Translations under genes and position numbers: made by a program
DNA from: Octopus sinensis
Lineage: Eukaryota
Assembly (NCBI RefSeq): GCF_006345805.1
Contig: NW_021826267.1
Span: 1-35,783 of the forward strand
DNA length: 35,783 nucleotides
Direction: 5' to 3'
Shown: piece by piece, positions 2,249 to 35,280 of the stretch
How positions within the stretch are numbered: position 1 is the first letter of the stretch
How the letters are laid out: every line of letters begins with the position of its first letter
Notes under the pieces: model-generated
Seen by the model: only the letters and a program-made list of their open reading frames with translations
Told to the model about the DNA's origin: nothing
Database searches by the model: none

Positions 2249-2753
2249 GGTGTTATTTGAGATAGGGGAATCACTCTCATTAGCATTTCTCAGATATTTG
2301 ATCTCTTAAATGCTTTAAATTATGTTCTAAAACATTTATGTATACAAGCAGATATCAGCTCTGAATGACGATTAAGAAGAGAGAATTTTGAAAACAATAT
2401 TTCACAAATGTAAAATTCTCCCAAAACTGAGGAAAGTTTGTGATGCAAAGCACCAGATATATAAAACTGCAATATCATTAATATCAAACAAATATTTCGA
2501 TCTCATTGAAAGAATTATACGAAAGTTATCGAAATACCATTATAAAATGTAATAGTTTTCCTTGTGGGTAAGGTAATATGAATTTCAGAACCAGTAATTA
2601 ATGGGAAGATTTTTTGTCATCCGTCAAAAGGTGGTCGGAATTGATGGGTTAGCTTTCCTTTATGTCAACTTGTACAAATTTTCAAATTGTAACCAGTAAT
2701 AGGGTCGGTAATTTTACTTTGGACAATCTTCTATCAAGAATATGCATACTATA

Positions 2754-3176
2754 GGCGCAGGAGTGGCTGTGTGGTAAGTAGCTTGCTAACCAACCACATG
2801 GTTGCGGGTTCAGTCCCACTGCGTGGCATCTTGGGCAAGTGTCTTCTGCTGTAGCCCTGGGCCGACCAATGCCTTGTGAGTGGATTTGGTAGACGGAAAC
2901 TGAAAGAAGCCTGTCGTATATATGTATATATATATATATATGTATGTATGTGTGTGTTTGTGTGTCTGTGTTTGTCCCCCTAGCATTGCTTGACAACCGA
3001 TGCTGGTGTGCTTATGTCCCCGTCACTTAGCGGTTCGGCAAAAAGAGACTAATAGAATAAGTACTGGGCTTACAAAGAATAAGTCCCGGGGACGATTTGA
3101 TCGACTAAAATGCGGTGCTCCAGCATGGCCGCAGTCAAATGACTGAAACAAGTAAAAGAGTAAAAGAGTAAAAGAG
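2754..3176 (+). mobile_element. tRNA-derived SINE, family A, full length, with 6-bp TSD
   Basis: Pol III A/B boxes, (TAAAAGAG)n tail; ACTATA duplicated at 2748-2753 and 3177-3182. Confidence 0.92.
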
Positions 3177-8659: not shown

Positions 8660-9005
8660 AAATATATATACATGCATATATGGGTACAGGACGTTACCAA
8701 CTGTGCAAATAACATGAAATACGTAACCAACGACAAAAATGGAAAACAGGACAAGTAAACATAGAAAAAGGACCCTCCATCAGTTGTCGGCTGTCTATCT
8801 ACTCCTCATTTCGAGCCTTCAACGACAATATGAGTCATCAAAGATAGTTACCCCCATAAAATCTAAAATAATATTTAGGATTTATAGAGGGTCAGAGTCG
8901 GGAACAAATACATAACAGTGTAGACATACAAAGAGATCGAATGAAAACAAACATGGAGGGTGTTAGACGATAGAAGAGAAAGAGAAATAAAACGTCCGCT
9001 CTTAC
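8660..9005 (-). mobile_element. Non-coding hammerhead-bearing element, divergent copy 2 (5'-truncated)
   Basis: Same module order as 971-1792: T-rich tract, hairpin 8850-8892, permuted hammerhead, T-rich tract, GTCCTGTACCCATATATGCATGTATATA end. Confidence 0.6.
8771..8834 (-). ncRNA. Hammerhead ribozyme, non-circularly permuted, with A9G core change
   Basis: Minus strand reads CTCAT-A-TTGTCG-ttgaa-GGCTC-GAA-ATGAG-15 nt-CGACAA-CTGATGG-A-GGGTC; stems I and III are perfect Watson-Crick. Confidence 0.65.
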
Positions 9006-9068
9006 ATACATACATACATACACACATACATACATACACACTCATACATACATATATACATACATACA

Positions 9069-9104
<36 letters not shown>

Positions 9105-9974
9105 TATATACACATATATATATGTGTGTGTGTGTGTGTGTGTATATATATACCGATATATGTATGTATGTATATATGTATGTATCACAGTATCAGAGTA
9201 TCGAACAGACTATCAGTTCAGAATCTGTTATACACCGCTGGTTACAATGTACTTTCAATTCTGTCTAGATTGTGCCATTCTTTCCCACCTTCATCCGAAT
9301 TGCTAGAGTAAATCGTGATTTCATCGCCGTGGAGGCTTTCCAAGTGGTCTTTTCCGATCTCTTGGATACAATTCAGCTACGATATGGGTCCACCTGTTGT
9401 TTGTGAACTTTATAACATGCCCAGTACAGCAGAACTTGTGATATAGTTAATCTCTGATTACATCTTCCACTCTACTCGTAAACTATATACATACATACAT
9501 ACATACATACACACACGTATACACATGCGTGCACACACATACATACACAAACAAATACCTAGTTTACAGTTCCAATATAGATAGGATCAACAAAAATATA
9601 CTCTATACAGTAAGAGATAAATATCCTTTAATATACACAATTATACAAGGGTTACTAATAGTTCCATGCTTTAAGATACATTAAATTGGCATATTTACAT
9701 AACATACTATAGATATATATCCCTAAGCAATCTTTCAAGCTCAGTTCATAACGCTAGATGTATTTATACACCCAGGACACTGGTCAATGAGAAAACATGA
9801 GAAAAATGAGAAGAATACGCGAAGAAGGTTGATGCAGAAAACGAAACTAAAAGAAAGAAAAGTAAGAAAACCAAGATCTTTGTCTTTTTTGACTGCAGAA
9901 ACTATGGTTAATGTAGCTGGTGCAAAATAATATAAGAGAAAAGAGGCCAAATCTTGTGAGATATCCAGTCAGTC

Positions 9975-13340: not shown

Positions 13341-13492
13341 GGCGCAGGCGTAGCTGTGTGGTATGAAGCTTGTTTCTCAACCGCATGGTTCCGCGTCCAG
13401 TCCCACCTTGGGCAAATGTCTTCTACTATAGTCTCGGTCCGACCAATGCCTTGTGAGTAGATTTGGTAGGCGGAACCTGAAAGAAGCCCGTT
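13341..13492 (+). mobile_element. SINE family A 5' half
   Basis: Head homologous to 2754-2915; ends at the internal TA tract. Confidence 0.85.
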
Positions 13493-13629
13493 GTATATAT
13501 ATATATATATATATATAAAATATTATTAGAGACAAAACCACTATTTTGCAAAACAAACAAGGAAAGACTTAATCAATACATAAAATTTTAATAAATAGTC
13601 AAAAAATATATATATACATACACATAGAA

Positions 13630-14222
13630 GCAAAATTTCTTTCCTGAGAGATCTTACTGCATGCAATCAAGCCCTATACATAGCATTCGTGGAAACTCAC
13701 CTCAGCCCTGACATAGAGAATGCAGAAGTACACGTACCAAACTATGCCATACTGCGAACAGACAGAAGGGAAAGGAGCCATGGTGGAGTTGCTGTATACA
13801 TCCGTGATGACCTCACACCCCAGGTCTTACTGTCATACTCAAATTCGGTATGTGACACTCTAATTGTATACATAAGACAACATAATATAGTCATATGCAA
13901 TACATATTGCCCACCTGATGCTCCAAACCACATAGGCAAGTTTGAAGATTGCCTCCCAAGAATTAAAGAAATCCTCATGAATCTGGAACACCACGTGACC
14001 ATATTTCTTATGGATGATTTCAACTTCCCCAACGTCAAATGGCCCGAAGGTCTCATACTCTCAGGAATGACTCATTGAAAGCAAACACAGGTGGAGTCCC
14101 TGCTCAACCTCACCAATGCCTTATTCATGGAGCAAGTTGTACTCAAACCAGTTAGGGCGAATAACCTTCTGGATCTCTGCTTCACGAACAATATGGACAT
14201 CATCCATGATGTGAAAGTGACA
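13630..14222 (+). pseudogene. CR1/L2-type LINE APE endonuclease domain, disrupted
   Basis: Motifs ETHL, RTDR..GGVAVYI, YCPP, (G)DFN, and after a stop NNLLDLCFTN. Confidence 0.9.
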
Positions 14223-15603: not shown

Positions 15604-16013
15604 TCTCTACTCTTTTCTTTTACTTCTTTCAGTCATGTGACTGTGGCCATGCTGGAGCACCGCCTTTAGTCGAGCAAATTGACCCCAGGACTTGTTCTTT
15701 GTAAGCCTAGTATTTATTCTATCGGTCTCTTTTGCCGAACCGCATAGTTACGGGGACGTAAACACACCAGCATCGGTTGTCAAGCGATGTTGGTGGGACA
15801 AACACAAACACACAAACATATACATACACATACATATATATACATATATACGACGGGCTTCTTTCAGTTTCCGTCTACCAAATCTACTCACAAGGCTTTG
15901 GTAGGCCCGAGGCTATAGTAGAAGACACTTGTCCAAGTTGCCACGCAGTGGGACTGAACCCGGAACCATGTGGTTCGTAAGCAAGCTACTTACCACACAG
16001 TCACTCCTACGCC
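15604..16013 (-). mobile_element. tRNA-derived SINE, family A, full length
   Basis: Collinear with 1812-2213 over its whole length. Confidence 0.9.
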
Positions 16014-16057
16014 TATAAACTGTTCATATTTTATATAAAGTCTAAGGTGTCAAGCTG

Positions 16058-16404: not shown

Positions 16405-17571
16405 TAGTTTTATTTTTATAGCGTGCTTTCACTTCACTAACGAGCGCAGCTCTGTGTGCCTTGGGTATGTGCTGTGATTTGTTGTGATGCTCTGATGGTT
16501 ATTGTATGGAAAGTGTTCTGCGTAGGATGTGTGCAGTGCCTAGTAGTGCAATTTTCTGTATGTTATATGTGTTTGTAAGTCCTGGTGTTTTTGTTATGTA
16601 TTTGTCTGAATATTTTTTTATCATGCCTAATGCACCTGCTATGATAGGAATTGTTTCTGTTTTCAGGTTCCACATTCTAGTTACCTCTATTTCCAGGTCT
16701 TTGTATTTTGAGAGTTTCTCCATTTCTTTTAGAGACACGTTGTCATCTGCCGGTATTGATACATCAATTAGAAAGCATTTTTTTTCTTCATGATCTCTGA
16801 CAACTATATCTGGTCTGTTGGCCTTAATTTCTCTATCTGTGTGTATCGGCATATCCCAGAGTATGGTTGCTTTCTCGTTTTCTGTGACCTTTTCTGGTGT
16901 GTGCCTATACCATCTTTTTCTGTTGTTATTCCATAATGTTGGCATAGCTTCCAATGTATGTAGGTTCCAACTCTGTCATGTCTGTGAATATATTCCTTCT
17001 TAGCCAGGACTGGGCAGCTAGAGATAATATGATTTATTGTTTCTTGTCCATCTCCACATATTCTGCAGTTACTTGTAATATTTCTTTTCATTACATGTTT
17101 TTGGTAATTTCTGGTGGGGAGGCTTTGGTCTTGTGCTGCAATTAAAAATCCCTCTGTTTCTGCTTTGAGTCCTGAGCTTCTCAACCATTGCTGGGATTTT
17201 TCTTTGTCTATTTCTTTTGCGTTTAGTTTAGTGCAATATTTACCATGAAGGGGCTTTTCTTGCCATCGTTTTATCATGGCTCGTTGCTGTTCTATTTTTA
17301 GTTTGGATTTCATTTGTTTTATAGCTTTTGTTGTTTCTTCATCATCTTCTTCTTCTTCTTTGTGTTATTAGGTGGTATGATTTCTTGTTGTATTTGTCAG
17401 CTTCCTTAAATACCGAGAACAGTTTTTTGTTTTGCTCGTGTTTTGCTGCTATCTGGATCAGTTTTCCTTCCTTCTGAAGTAGGTATTTTTGCAGTCCTAT
17501 GGTGGTTATTTTATAGTAGTTTTCCAGCTGTATAAGGCCTCTACCACCTTCTATACGTTGTATATATAGTC

Positions 17572-17699: not shown

Positions 17700-18182
17700 T
17701 ATATGTTTTACTTTTGCTTTGTATCTGTACAAGTTGACTTCAAGTTTTACCCAGAGAAAAGGTAGAAGTTCAAGTTGGTGTTATGACTAGGGTGCCATAT
17801 ATTCGGTTTTACTCCACGTATTGTTCTAGAGAATGTTTAAGAAAACACAAGAAAATCATAATTTTCTTTTAAAATTTGAGGTTACATAGACAATATTTTA
17901 CGTAGGATATGAGTAGTTCCAACGAGCATTATTTTTTGAATTTCTGCCATTTTGGGATTTCCTGCTATTGAAGCTAGGTAGCAATCATCCCCATTTGCTA
18001 TCATTCCTAATGCACCTATGACAACAAGTATTGTTTTATTCTTGAGGTTCCACATGTTGCCAATTTCTATTTCAAAATCTTTATACTTGCTCAGTTTTTG
18101 GTAGGTCTTGACAGATACATTTATGTCGATTGGGCCAGTCATATCGATGAGGAGGCATGATTTTTGTCTGAAGGCCTTCAAT
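17700..18182 (-). mobile_element. Second R4/Dong-type 3' fragment (different subfamily)
   Basis: CLLIDM..KLSKYKDFEIEI..MWNLK..IGALG..THILRKILS; distinct 3' UTR; flanked by TAT/CAT tracts. Confidence 0.85.
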
Positions 18183-18209
18183 ATTATTATTATTAGTATT
18201 GTTGTTATT

Positions 18210-18530
18210 TTGAATTTTATTCTGCATGTGTCTTACAGTCATTTGCTGGAGCACACCTAGCGTCCTGCGGTGAGTGAAGAATAAGAGATATTACAATATG
18301 ACTGAAAGCATGGGAGATGAGGTAGTGAAATATCTTCATGTAACACAATACAGACATTTAAATGGATAGGGTTTTTAAAGATGTGTGCAGTACAATATTT
18401 TGGATTTCTCTGAGACTTGGTTCACCTGGGATCTTATCTAGCTATTTCTGACATCCCCTTTTTTTTTATTATACCTAGGGCTCCTACAATAATAGGAATA
18501 GTTCTCGTTTTTAAGATGCCACATCTTTTA
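18210..18530 (-). mobile_element. Third R4/Dong-type 3' fragment
   Basis: Minus-strand translation LKTRTIPIIVGALGIIKK..KIPGEPSLREIQ..KTLSI*. Confidence 0.75.
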
Positions 18531-20510: not shown

Positions 20511-20733
20511 GGTGCAGACTTAGCTGTGTGGTAAGAAGTTTACTTTCCAGCCACATGGGTCTGGGTTCAGTCCCACTGCGTGCCATCTTGGAGACTTCAA
20601 CTTTAGTGTCAGGCCAACTGTAGTTGTTATTTATTATAAAGAACCCAGTTCCGTTATTGGTATTGTAATTCTGTGAATAGATTTGGTAAACGGAAACTGA
20701 AGGAAGCCTCACATATATATGTGTGTGCGCGTG

Positions 20734-20772
<39 letters not shown>

Positions 20773-20990: not shown

Positions 20991-21701
20991 TAGAACGATA
21001 TGAAAGCGAGAATACGTGAAATATTTAGCTTTGGAAGTAGTAAGAACAATGGCTGTTGTTGTGGTGGTGGTGTTGGTGGTGGTTTTGATGGTGGTGGTGG
21101 TGGTGATGAGGATAATGATGGGGAGGAGGAGGAGGAAGACGATGATTACGTCGATGACCACGACGATGGTGACATTGATGATGATACTTTGTGCATCGAG
21201 TTGTTCGGCCGTATGAATTATGTACGTTTTGAACTATCTGCGTACTCCGCGGACATATGTACCATGAACATAATTTCCCAGAACAATCTGCTTGAAATGT
21301 AAACGACAAGGTGCTTTAATTACAGTTGCAGTCGGCCCGACATGCTTCCGCTGCTTCCATTTCTACTTAAATTCACTTAGAAGGTTTGGAAAAGAATTTT
21401 CGTTTGCTTGTCGAAGAACATAAGAGATCAATGTTGAATGGAAGCAAAGCAAAGCTTTTCTCAGAAAATTCAAACATCTTATTGCCGGGACTTTTAGACG
21501 AGCCAACGGCAGAGAACTATACCTAAATACTGCTAGTAATGAAAGCGCCTAGCATCGTAATTTTGAAATATCTATAAAACCGTCAAAAGCTTGTTTAAAA
21601 ATTTTTTTTTTTATTTATTATTAGTATTGCTTAATACATTTTGATAAAATTGTTATTTATTTTCAGATATCATCAGAAAAAGGTAATTAAAATTCATTAA
21701 A

Positions 21702-22080
21702 ATGACAGATCTATCGGACTTTCAAAGAGGTCAAATTGTTGGTGCTCGTATGACAGGCGCTAGCGTATCGAAAACAGTCGAAATGTTTGGTCTATCAAGA
21801 AGTACTATCTCGAAAGTAATGACAGCCTTTAAGAAAGGGGGAAAACCACCTTGTCGAAACAAAACTCCGGAAGTAAACCAAAATTTTCAGATAGGGACCG
21901 TCGGATTCTTACGCGAATTGTTAGAAAGGATCACAAAAGTACAGCTCCCAAAATTGCTGCCGAGCTTAATGACCACCCCGAGAACCCAGTTTCCACAAAA
22001 ACTGTTCGCCGGGAGCTTCACAAAGCCGGATTTCACGGGAGGGCCACAAAAATCCCCGCTACTTTCAAAAACAAACACTC
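21702..22080 (+). pseudogene. Tc1-family transposase N-terminal (bipartite HTH) fragment
   Basis: LSDFQRGQIVGAR..; frameshift near 21845; SG.KPKFSDRDRR..VSTKTVRRELHKAGFHGR; no catalytic domain. Confidence 0.88.
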
Positions 22081-22089
22081 AGCAAGCTC

Positions 22090-24095
22090 ATCAAAAGACT
22101 TAATAACAAAAATCAATCAATTAAAATGCATCCACATTCAACAGCAATGAAAGGCTGGGGTTGGAAAAACTTCAACTGCAAACCAACATGAAAAACTCCA
22201 TTGAAAATCAAAGAGCTGCAGAGGAACAGTGGATAATAAAAAAAAATCAAACAGAACACAAAAGTGTTCTATTCATATGCAAATAAGCGTAGGACCGCTG
22301 TCTCACCCATTGATCCATTGATCGATCTTAACAGAATTCTCCAACACGATGCTAAAGAAATGGCTGAAGTACTGCAGAAACAATACTGCTCTGTCTTTAG
22401 TGATCCCACTGATATTGACGTAAGGGATGTGAATGAAGTCGATTCCCAACACATAATCTCGGACATAACCTTTACTGCTTCAGTCATCATAGCAGCAATA
22501 AAAAAGATCAAATACTTTTCTGCTGTAGGCCCTGATAGATTCCTCGCTAGTCTGCTGAAGGAATGTAGACATCAACTCGCAGTCATTCTGACCAACCCCT
22601 GGAGAAATTCTTTAGACTCAGGTTATATACCGAAACAGCTCTTATCCCGGTTTTCAAACAGGGAATCAGATCCCTCGCAGTCCACTATCGGCCAATCTCA
22701 CTCACCCTTCATATTATTAAAGTGTTTGAAAGGGTGGTAAGATTAAGGATAGCTGGCTTCCTGGAAAGTCACAATCTCCTAAATTCAAACCAGTATGGAT
22801 TTTGCTTCGGCAGGGACTGTATATCACAGTTCTTACACCACATCGACAATATCCTTAAAGCCTTGGGAATAAGTTCGAACTCTGATGTCATATATCTTGG
22901 ATTCAGTAAAACTTTCAACAGAGTTAACTATAATATTCTATTGTCAAACTTGTCAGATGTTGGAATCCGTGGGAAACCTCTACACAGGATTGAGTATTTC
23001 CTGAAGAACAGGACACAACATGCTGTGATCGGTGGCATCCTCTCAGGTCCTGCAAAGACATCAGTGTTCTTGGGCCCGCTCCTCTGTCTTGGGCCCGTTC
23101 CTTTTTATAATCTATATAAACGACCTTTCCAGCGTCATAAAACACAGCAAAGTGAAAATATTCACTGATGACTCTAACCTCCAGAAAATTATCAATGAAG
23201 AAGACTGAACTCAACTCCAGTCTGATCTTCATGATGTGAGTCAATAGGCAGACACACAAAATGTTACTAAATGAGGAAAAATTTGAGCTGATGCATTTTG
23301 GAAAAAAGTTTATGCTAAATCAGTCATACCCTCTTCCTTCACGGAAACCTCTAACAGCATCTAATAATATCAGAGACCTAGGAGTAATTGTTGATCACAA
23401 TCTAAGTTGGAGTGCCCACATCAACAATAATGTCGATATAGCTTGTAGGTTGGCCTCCTGGATCGGCAGAACCTTGCGGTCCAGAGAACAAGGCGTCATC
23501 ATTCAACTCTTCCCCTCCTTTGTACAGCCGCACCCCGAATACTAATGCCCCCTGTGATCTCCCCATAAAAAACAAAATATCTCGAAAATTAAATCATCCC
23601 AGATGTCATTCACTAAAAGAATTAAGTGCCTGACCGATCTCGATTATTGGGACTTCCATAAAGCATTGAAACTCTATTCTCTCCAGAGCCGCCGTGAGCG
23701 ATACATCATTTGCACGATGTGGAGAATATACCACAAGCATTGCCCAAACGACCTCAACATTATCTTCAAAATTCATCCAAGGCTACCCAATTCCGGATTA
23801 TAACATGCACTGCAACACAGTTTCTTTTCCGCAACAGATTCAGCCCTATTTAATATTGTCACCAAACAGATCAAAGAGGAAAAGGATCCCATTACGTTTA
23901 ACCGGAATCTGGACAAATTTCTTCAACGAATACCAGATAAGCCACATAAACCTGGATACAACTCACTCAACAAGAACTCCCTACACGAATGGACCATGAT
24001 ACCACAAAACTTGACTTAAAAAGGATTTAAATAATCCTATTAGTTGATGCTATTAAGTTAGACACGGCCCGAACCAATCTTTGATCGAGACATAT
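22090..24095 (+). mobile_element. CR1/L2-type LINE, RT and 3' end, many frameshifts and stops
   Basis: FYSY, AVGPD, YRPISLT, NQYGF, DVIYLGFSKTF, LGP, YINDL, FTDD, RDLGV, LYSLQSRRERY in the expected order. Confidence 0.92.
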
Positions 24096-32225: not shown

Positions 32226-32702
32226 CCAAGCTTGCTTCCCTACCACATGGTACCGGGTTCAGTCCTACAGCGTGGCTACTTAGCTAGGTGTCTTCTACAA
32301 TAGCCTCGGGCCAACCAAAGCCTTGTTAGTGGATTTGGTTTATGGAAACTGAAAGAAACCCATCGTATATAGATATATATATACAAATATATATATAAAT
32401 GGCGGTGCCCCAGCAAAATGGCGGTGCCCCAGCATGGCCACAGCTCATGAGCTGAAACCAGAAGAAAAAAAAAAAAAAAAATGTATATATACATATATAT
32501 GTTTGTATGTGTGTATGCGTGTGTATGTATGTGTATCTTTGTGTCTCTGTTGGTGTGTTTACGTCCCTGTAGGTTAGCGGTGTGGCAAAAGATCTCGATA
32601 TAATAAATCCCAAGCTTTAAAAGCTAATAAACACTGGAGTCGATTCATTCGACTAAAATGAATTCAAGACGGTGCCCTAGCACCTAATTACTGAAACAAG
32701 AC
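32226..32702 (+). mobile_element. Degenerate SINE family A copy with nested 3'-tail insertion
   Basis: Head 32226-32365, extra tail plus A run 32397-32481, body and tail 32520-32702. Confidence 0.75.
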
Positions 32703-33996: not shown

Positions 33997-35280
33997 TTGG
34001 GTTGTTCGGAAAGTTCGTGCCGATTTATAAAGGAAAGAAATAGGTCAATAAATACATACCATTACATTTTTAATCAACCAAATATGAACCATTTTGTTGC
34101 GCAATGCGTCTCCATCTTTCCTTTAACTTGAAAATACCCTCTTCCCAGAATTGAGGTGGTTTCATGGCAAAGAATTCATCAAGGTGTCTTTTTACGTCAT
34201 CCAAAGAATTGAAATTTTTACCATTAAGACCATTCTGCAGAGACCTGAATAAGTGGAAATCCAAAGGAGCAATATCTGGCAAATATAGAGGGTGGAGTAA
34301 TACATCCCAACTGAGCTGCAGCAATTTTTGTCTGGTTCCCAAAGAAACGTGCAGTCTTGCATTATCATGTTGGAAAACAACATCCTTCCTGTTGGCCAAT
34401 TCTGGATGCTTCTCTTGAATTGCTGCTTTTAACTCGTCCAGTTGTGTGCAGTATTTCTCAGAATTAATTGTCTGGTTACTTGGGAGAAGCTTATAATACA
34501 GAATTCCTTTCCAATCCCACCAGACACAAAGCAAGACGTTTTTAGGGTGAAGAGCCGTTTTGTGGGTGGCTAAGGGTGGCTCATGTCGCTTACTCCAGGA
34601 TCGCTTTCTCTGAACATTTCGGTAGATAATCCATTTCTCATCATCTGCCACAATTTTCTTTAAAAAAGGGGCATTTTCATTCCGTTTATAAAGCGAATCA
34701 CAAATGGAAATGTGATTCAAAAGGTTCTTCTCACTCAACTCATGTGGTACCCAAACATCGGAGCGATTTGTGTACCCTAGCTTTACCAGGAGTTCATGAA
34801 CGACGGATTTTGATAGGTTGAGTCTGTCTACCAATTCTCGGGTTGTGCAATGTGGGTTATTCTCAGCTAATGACTTGATTTGGTCATCATCTGTAGTGGC
34901 TGGTCTGTCTGATCACTCTTTATCAATAAGGTTACAATCTCCAGTTTGGAACCTTGCGAACCATTTCCATATAGTTCTTTCAGATAAAGAAACATCATCG
35001 TAAACTGCGTATATTTCTTTGGTTGCTTGTGAGGCATTTTCCCCTTACGGAAAAAGAAAAGCATCAAGTGCCGAAAATGAACTTTCTTATCTTCCATTTT
35101 AAAGGGTTACAGAATTAACACAGGTTATAGGAACATAAATCTTCTTCCAAGAAAAGATAGTTTCAACTGTACTCTAAATGGAGGTGTAGTCAAATCCTAT
35201 CGTATTGGACTCAACCATGTTCTAAAATAAGTCGAAAGGTAAGCTACTATAAATCGGCACGAACTTTCCGGACAACCCAA
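33997..35280 (-). mobile_element. Full-length mariner (DD34D), 1284 bp
   Basis: 33-bp TIRs 33997-34029 and 35248-35280 (1 mismatch); TA TSD on both sides. Confidence 0.97.
34070..35097 (-). pseudogene. Mariner transposase, disabled
   Basis: ATG at 35097, frameshift near 35040, in-frame TGA near 34914; WVPHEL, DEKW, HDNA..34 aa..D, YLPDIAPLD (YSPDLAPSD variant). Confidence 0.95.

Follow-up and report, generated by a model that had tools for sequence, protein, structure and literature searches.

Hammerhead ribozymes have been described in terms of three blocks, S, G and C, and two arrangements of these blocks, types SGC and CSG, have been validated by cleavage (Eckert et al. 2023, PMC10085705; this and the other published sources are cited for the portions consulted). 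In that account, CUGANGA and the adjacent stem strands are assumed to be contiguous, with six possible layouts, and type SGC is described as having an additional helix that connects stem I with stem II. The same portions place type SGC in metatranscriptomes only, with none in the genomes of known organisms, and give type CSG from a pair of metagenomic sequences (CSG-1, CSG-2). Among mobile elements, Penelope-type hammerheads commonly bulge a nucleotide between A9 and G10.1 (PMC4209133), and other core insertions and a different pseudoknot form have been reported (PMC3088659 and PMC11300833). The Naiads, a group of Penelope-like elements, have (TA)n targets and, in the portions of Craig et al. 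(2021, PMC8557442) consulted, no canonical hammerheads; eight Naiad "half cores" are flagged there, and Naiad_Ovul and Naiad_Esco are labeled "HHR_half_core." The preprint on non-LTR retrozymes uses type I descriptors only in the portions consulted (bioRxiv 10.64898/2026.07.22.740005).

We analyzed a 35,783-nt stretch of the Octopus sinensis genome (contig NW_021826267.1; here called the window), which is AT-rich and contains many microsatellites and retroelement remnants. Among its other contents are 3' ends of another RLE-type LINE (RPD...K..KY) by (TTC)n/(TTA)n (16499-17364 and 17882-18232, both on the minus strand), fragments resembling an AP-endonuclease/RT LINE (13599-14078 and 22240-23803, both on the plus strand), Tc1-like and mariner-like transposase remnants (21687-22150 on the plus strand and 34070-34912 on the minus strand), and a common SINE-like repeat in both orientations (1869-2217, 2729-3109, 13404-13552, 15730-16038, 20672-20772, and 32229-32424). 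Rfam microRNA matches in the window were rejected as microsatellite artefacts.

The motif of interest lies on the minus strand in a decayed, 5'-truncated copy of a non-autonomous retroelement family, F2 (8968-8681). The copy sits between microsatellites, and a (TACA)n/(TA)n tract (9003-9185) begins just past its truncated 5' end. Read 5' to 3' on the minus strand, a stem III strand, CTCAT (8834-8830), is followed by H17 (A, 8829; triplet AUA) and by a stem I strand, TTGTCG (8828-8823), which covaries across families; by analogy, the cut is predicted to fall between 8829 and 8828. The next segment (8817-8805) comprises the stem II 3' strand GGCTC (8817-8813; family TGCTC), GAAA (8812-8809), and the second stem III strand, TGAG (8808-8805). 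A 15-nt linker (8804-8790) then leads to the second stem I strand, CGACAA (8789-8784), joined to the core CTGATGG (8783-8777), which carries an A9G change, and GGGTC (8775-8771) follows. The preliminary description of this locus had named these letters, and each of them was present exactly where it had been placed, including the 15-nt linker; its reading of a hammerhead-type RNA with the blocks in a noncircularly permuted order (cleavage site, GAAA, CUGANGA) is likewise upheld. It had missed a fourth helix, between loops I and II, as well as the status of the motif as a retroelement 3' module. The 3' strand of this loop I/II helix, AGACAG (8796-8791), lies within the linker, and its 5' strand, CTATCT (8847-8842; CTGTCT in the family, with one private change), precedes the cleavage block. 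Further upstream is GGGTA (8853-8849; F2 majority GAGCA, two private changes), the 5' strand of the stem II that covaries (strand "a"), the first G of which is the equivalent of G10.1. The motif therefore starts at about 8853, some 20 nt before the segment first described.

The window copy is a poor representative of its family. None of the 29 F2 relatives that we fetched, which were picked for similarity overall, carries A9G, all 29 having A at this position, so that the change is private, as is the G at 8817, which 1 of the 29 relatives shares and in place of which the other 28 have T. Of 37 differences between the window copy and the column majority, 24 fall in 8968-8681. The suspicion that this copy is impaired was well founded: with A9G and private changes in both stem II and the I/II helix, it is probably inactive.

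A first look with the 291 nt around the motif gave 2,927 candidates in the genome, and the 29 fetched relatives were 84 to 87% identical. The full F2 unit is ~700 to 800 nt long. Its copies share one 3' boundary, at a TA-rich tract, whereas their 5' ends are scattered as far as ~600 to 700 nt upstream, the pattern expected of reverse-transcribed insertions, which places the motif on the RNA strand. A microsatellite lies no more than 260 nt 3' of 28 of 34 F2 copies, compared with 405 of 2,000 in the background. Among genomic F2 copies, the core shows no better conservation than the flanks (0.94 versus 0.93), which argues for neutral decay after insertion, with any selection acting in the source elements. 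The window also carries, on the plus strand, a near full-length unit (960-1710, ~780 nt) of a younger family, F1 (2,403 candidates, 94 to 96% identity), with tandem and inverted neighbors. Its motif extends over 1501-1576 (from stem III to the core, 1521-1576) and consists of strand "a" (1501-1505), the I/II helix (1507-1516 with 1554-1563), stem III (1521-1525), H17 (U, 1526), stem I (1527-1532 with 1564-1569), the stem II 3' strand (1536-1540), GAAA (1541-1544), and an intact core (1570-1576). F1 forms head-to-tail repeats and inverted 5' copies, and a second copy was found within 1.5 kb at 8 of 29 F1 loci and at 5 of 29 F2 loci (four tandem and one inverted). Contigs from three runs guessed to be RNA cover F1, although contigs cannot show strand, ends, or level. 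In two loci (L151:1450-1600 and L152:1480-1560), inversion junctions in or beside the motif create perfect palindromes. A different repeat (L003, ~150-230 on the minus strand) has a degenerate hammerhead-like core in canonical order, which makes it probable that this genome also houses ordinary type I elements.

To follow pairing through sequence turnover, we assembled 150 copies from 10 families (loci L001 to L220) and scored pairing within a copy's own family against pairing between families. Nine families were assigned by the GAAA-to-core segment only and family C (6 copies) manually; we dropped one misassigned row (L193 in F1) and left out loci in which the segment was too decayed, while copies truncated upstream were retained and scored as misses. 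The tests were anchored on the blocks, because MAFFT misaligned families N and E when applied to 17 octopus-genome motifs. With an equal site search for both partners, stems I and III together scored 8.8 of 10 with own-family partners and 6.0 with foreign partners (P < 1e-5; this and the other P values from the 10 families overstate independence because the families share ancestry, and four of them have five copies or fewer). CUGANGA, GAAA, C11.1, U16.1, and an H other than G were the majority state in all 10 families, so that at the family level the core, with its A9, is intact in the majority; the search patterns required the core, so that its conservation is partly built in, whereas U16.1, H, and the upstream G were not required. 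The modal NUH triplets were AUA, GUC, GUU, GUA, and AUC. A cleavage block downstream of the core, as in the canonical order, was considered and rejected, scoring 6.3 against 9.1 for the upstream position. In nested folding, the motif did not stand out (z, −2.4 to +0.5), but such folding is weak and uninformative here because the motif is pseudoknotted.

The partner of the stem II strand that precedes GAAA proved to lie upstream, 20 to 28 nt before the cleavage site. Pairing between the upstream strand and the pre-GAAA strand averaged 4.39 of 5 within families and 3.41 between families (P ~ 1e-5), and when six sequence classes were compared, the true pairing ranked best of 720. The upstream pairs differ in sequence (GAGCA/UGCUC, GAAGG/CCUUC, GACAC/GUGUC, GCACC/GGUGC, GACCC/GGGUC, and GGCUG/CAGUC). 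In every family (10/10), the majority state of the upstream strand has G in first position, facing the C that precedes GAAA, and it is only through this strand that the G10.1-C11.1 closure of stem II is the majority state in all 10. With stem II paired in this way, the break in the chain likely falls within the catalytic core. The I/II helix, formed between a strand that begins 1 nt after the upstream strand of stem II and the linker preceding stem I, also covaried (P = 3.5e-5).

An independent set of motifs gave the same structure. A metagenome scan with the pattern of family F, whose host is a LINE, returned 34 matches, of which we judged 21 by eye to be the motif and 13 to be chance matches in coding DNA. 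We aligned 12 of the 21 with 7 family F copies (19 motifs in all), leaving out near-duplicates (L252, L260, L274, L277, and L283), contig-end truncations (L257 and L259), and two loci in which parts were replaced or deleted (L273 and L282). In the four-helix structure, 89.7% of 409 cells were paired and there were 71 two-sided changes, a result matched by 0 of 500 shuffles; slid controls on the same alignment were 35 to 47% paired. The I/II helix was 93% paired, with two-sided changes at five of its six pairs. Stem II was just 77.7% paired because five rows are shifted, and it included reciprocal swaps (GGGUC/GACCC, GACCC/GGGUC, and GGCCA/UGGCC). Stem III was nearly invariant in this set because the search pattern fixed it.

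The preliminary description had instead paired GGCTC with GGGTC, the strand that follows the core, as stem II. This pairing needs the private letter at 8817. Across the 10 families, the post-core strand (allowing a bulge of 0 to 2 nt) did not covary with the pre-GAAA strand (2.9 versus 2.8 of 5, P = 0.22), its pairing ranked 139 of 720 in the six classes even though the search pattern demanded AGG there, and no more than one copy per family reached 4.5 of 5. In the 19 LINE-type motifs, it was 42% paired, and 296 of 500 shuffles did as well. GGGTC is present, then, but is unsupported as the covarying partner. The proposal that pairing kept through sequence turnover reflects selection on RNA structure in the source elements holds in these larger alignments for stems I and III and fails for stem II as first drawn, the true partner having been invisible from the two copies then at hand and becoming apparent from 150 copies in 10 families and the 19 LINE-type motifs.

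These results bear directly on a rival explanation, that the motif is an ordinary type SGC hammerhead or a hybrid, in which a nucleotide is bulged 3' of CUGANGA and the G that comes next acts as G10.1, closing one to four weak pairs, and the upstream strand would serve as a distal extension or else would sequester the pre-GAAA strand as an off-switch. A G at position +2 after the core is indeed the majority in 6 of the 10 families, where it could still pair with C11.1, and is found in most fish-type motifs too; a strict SGC descriptor passes 47 times, although nearly always with three or four pairs that include two G-U pairs. Moreover, bulged nucleotides after A9 are known (PMC4209133), and type SGC itself is validated (PMC10085705). 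Nevertheless, the absence of covariation despite a pattern biased toward this pairing speaks against it. Families F, G, and C have no G at +2; in family F, the core is followed by CAU (9 of 11 copies) or UAU (2 copies), neither of which supplies a G10.1. The spacer varies (A, TA, or TT) within F1-like subfamilies, and the upstream duplex is transcribed first and is the more stable, by 2.7 to 8.3 kcal/mol, in the best copies of 9 of 10 families (in the tenth, neither duplex forms). We therefore regard the SGC or hybrid explanation as unlikely, while ranking it first among the alternatives.

The motif occupies the 3' end, on the sense strand, of two kinds of animal retrotransposon that are unrelated to each other. 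RLE LINEs such as R2 are known for HDV-like ribozymes at their 5' ends. In family F, the motif lies ~20 nt after the stop codon of an ORF with an RPD...ELTVPWEE endonuclease motif; the ORF has homologues among fish RT proteins (tblastn of family F loci reached 1e-76), and we provisionally take its clade to be that of the Hero/Zebulon-type RLE non-LTR retrotransposons. Matches of the LINE-type ORF include zf-RVT, R2 proteins, and PF00078 relatives, Tetraodon and Takifugu proteins among them, as well as AAN12398.1, BAC82598.1, and BAC82599.1. In five metagenome loci, as in family F, the motif directly follows an ORF for RT, zinc knuckle, and RLE. On a 3.8-kb contig (L276:1-640, minus strand), it lies between the stop and the restart of a single RLE-LINE ORF, that is, between the C and N termini of the same protein, so that this unit must be tandem or circular. 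Many relatives likewise come from contigs of 3.6 to 4.2 kb, as arrays or circles would give. At a number of loci (L160, L171 to L173, L209 to L220, L269, and L282), CATCA(G) after the core complements both the core and the GATGA after stem III, and in family F it may represent an off-state or a dimer contact. In viral contigs, there was one match (L296), with the family F pattern twice, 90 nt apart, probably in a coding repeat.

The second host is a Naiad. There are 249 exact genome matches to the 3' end of the Naiad consensus sequences published for Octopus, and family N was assigned to Naiads by its match, by eye, to the 3' ends of the Naiad_Obim and Naiad_Ovul consensus sequences as displayed in the source. 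Both of these ends carry the full layout, again by eye, and the Naiad_Esco end has all three blocks (S, G, and C), but no stem II follows its core. Among 30 loci with the end of a Naiad ORF, 13 have the motif 0.5 to 1.4 kb downstream, always on the coding strand; Pfam did not recognize the short Naiad ORF-end fragments. Judging from these sequences, the motif would explain the octopus Naiad "half core." Most of the Naiad ends displayed are without it: within the ~280 nt given for each end, it is absent from 13 of 16 ends in a first set and from 12 of 18 in a second set. By eye, six ends of the second set, all from nematodes (Naiad-1_Nbra, Naiad-2_Nbra, Naiad-3_Nbra, Naiad_Hcon, Naiad_Hpol, and Naiad_Asuum), look like clean type CSG hammerheads with covarying stems and an I/II helix. 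Ends of Saccoglossus, Ptychodera, and bivalve Naiads share GC-rich 3' motifs of another kind, which are conserved, do not resemble hammerheads by eye, and may represent another structured RNA.

We found no coding partner for F1 to F4, C, D, E, or G, and no coding remnant or shared tail was found for F2; F2 and family N have the motif layout alone in common. The tandem and inverted pattern and the TA targets suggest that a Penelope-like element drives F2, and a Naiad-type enzyme may move both of the nonautonomous families F1 and F2.

How the motif might work can be outlined as follows. From 5' to 3', the wiring would run from the 5' strand of stem II to the first I/II helix strand and the stem III/NUH/stem I block, and then through the stem II 3' strand/GAAA/stem III block and the second I/II helix strand to stem I and CUGANGA. 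The source element transcript would be a tandem, read-through, or circular RNA, on which each unit could fold as it is transcribed, with stem II first and then stem III, the I/II helix, and stem I, CUGANGA docking last. A cut after NUH would create the 5' end of the next unit RNA, as has been proposed for Penelope pseudo-LTR hammerheads. Since genomic copies extend ~60 to 150 nt past the predicted cut, the template for reverse transcription would have been uncut at the 3' copy, multimeric, or circular. The folding order, the cutting, and the role in processing are all predictions, as is catalysis in the source elements.

The same features could be read as those of a hammerhead-derived structure that cleaves very slowly or not at all and serves the reverse transcriptase as a 3'-end recognition or protein-binding element, an alternative that we rank next and also consider improbable. 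The motif sits where reverse transcription starts, inserted copies span both sides of the predicted cut, and a break at A9/G10.1 could disable the core. However, the catalytic letters are kept across 10 families and two retroelement classes that are unrelated, whereas all of the stem letters change, a pattern that fits selection on catalysis. Much less likely is a ribozyme that forms only as a dimer, of tandem copies or of separate RNAs. Tandem and inverted neighbors are common, palindrome-like tracts follow the core in several families, and dimeric action has been described for Penelope hammerheads (PMC4209133); in those canonical Penelope hammerheads, however, it is the absence of stem III that drives dimer formation, whereas here all four helices, a full stem III included, find 4- to 10-bp partners within one 85-nt unit, and the linker lengths match those of monomeric type SGC. 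Chance resemblance in repeat DNA, for which one could cite the lack of an Rfam match and the 783 control matches to a loose pattern (short cores arise by chance), is refuted by the covariation tests, by 4,805 genome matches to CGAAA-N22..28-CTGAYGAAGG against 26 for the reversed control, by the four helices that covary, with fixed offsets, throughout 10 families, and by recurrence of the motif in unrelated elements and animals, and can be dismissed.

Taken together, the block order, the copy number, the family-level covariation of four helices, the core that is intact in the majority, and the 3'-end position in a Naiad Penelope-like element and an RLE LINE strongly support a conserved structure, which we predict to be a variant member of the hammerhead class and a catalyst. 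We think it likely that the window stretch is the decayed 3' module of a retroelement, with a predicted opened-core hammerhead fold that was probably self-cleaving after NUH in the source elements. On balance, we also lean toward a more specific proposal drawn from the same sequences, namely, that the motif is an active seventh wiring, present in animal genomes in thousands of copies, and the missing ribozyme of cephalopod Naiads (with plain type CSG in the nematode ones), that Penelope-like elements and the RLE LINEs found in fish and mollusks have exchanged it as a module, and that there it would divide tandem transcripts into unit RNAs. If this is true, it would break the assumption behind the six hammerhead layouts, that CUGANGA is joined to stem II, and noncircular permutations, so far seen in rare metatranscriptome RNAs, would be found among the most common repeats of an animal genome. 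The proposal would also account for the seeming lack of ribozymes in Naiads and add a hammerhead to an RLE LINE clade. Current ribozyme descriptors and Rfam miss this very abundant class: Rfam reported no ribozyme family in the window, in the motif, or in nine related loci, and the gathering thresholds of its hammerhead families (types I to III) were not reached. In the literature searched, which lay mostly outside subscription journals and wholly outside Repbase/Dfam annotations and bioRxiv supplements, none of the hammerheads described had its chain broken at A9/G10.1, and there was no account of the octopus layout, of Naiad ribozymes, or of hammerheads in Hero-type LINEs.

Compared with its possible relatives among mobile elements, the motif combines familiar and unfamiliar traits. 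F2 resembles Naiads in its (TA)n targeting and its tandem and inverted structures, but Naiads carry an ORF that F2 lacks, and its link to them is indirect. Family F has an RT/zinc-knuckle/RLE ORF, probably of the Hero/Zebulon type, before the motif, with head-to-tail units at L276, and differs from the LINEs of that type in the literature searched in carrying a hammerhead-like motif at all. Like Penelope pseudo-LTR type I hammerheads and non-LTR retrozymes (PMC4209133; 10.64898/2026.07.22.740005), the octopus motif lies near the 3' end of nonautonomous units of several hundred nucleotides that occur as tandem and inverted copies and for which processing of tandem transcripts has been proposed. 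The hammerheads of those elements, however, are nested type I structures with a minimal stem III that need dimers, whereas in the octopus motif, the order is noncircular, stem III is full, and one strand of stem II is detached. Its units do not carry the one type I hammerhead per tandem unit that characterizes non-LTR retrozymes, so that at most they would act like one.

The closest parallels are types SGC and CSG. With type SGC (HRIMA-1 and its variants), the motif shares the order of cleavage, GAAA, and CUGANGA blocks, a pseudoknotted core, a short linker from stem I to stem II, and an extra helix that joins the far sides of these two stems. In SGC, though, compensatory mutants place the 5' strand of stem II directly after CUGANGA, a contiguity (0 to 2 nt) that the octopus motif lacks, since its strand lies upstream of the cleavage block; and SGC comes from metatranscriptomes, whereas the octopus type is present in thousands of copies in an animal genome. 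With type CSG, it shares an identical cyclic order of strands and a cleavage block enclosed by stem II, and its local strand orders, in which the stem II strand precedes an I/II helix strand and an I/II helix strand precedes stem I, match both the nematode Naiad type CSG ends (by eye, six ends) and the SGC extra helix. A type CSG hammerhead begins with the CUGANGA block, continuous with stem II, and opens after stem III; in the octopus layout, the core is 3' of the GAAA block, a stem II strand alone comes first, and the chain opens between A9 and G10.1. The layout would thus be a circular permutation of CSG/SGC opened between these two nucleotides, with a backbone break in the three-dimensional fold, which the bulge of Penelope-type hammerheads at this position makes plausible without proving it. 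If it works, the motif would act as types SGC and CSG do, yet by its strand arrangement it belongs to neither.
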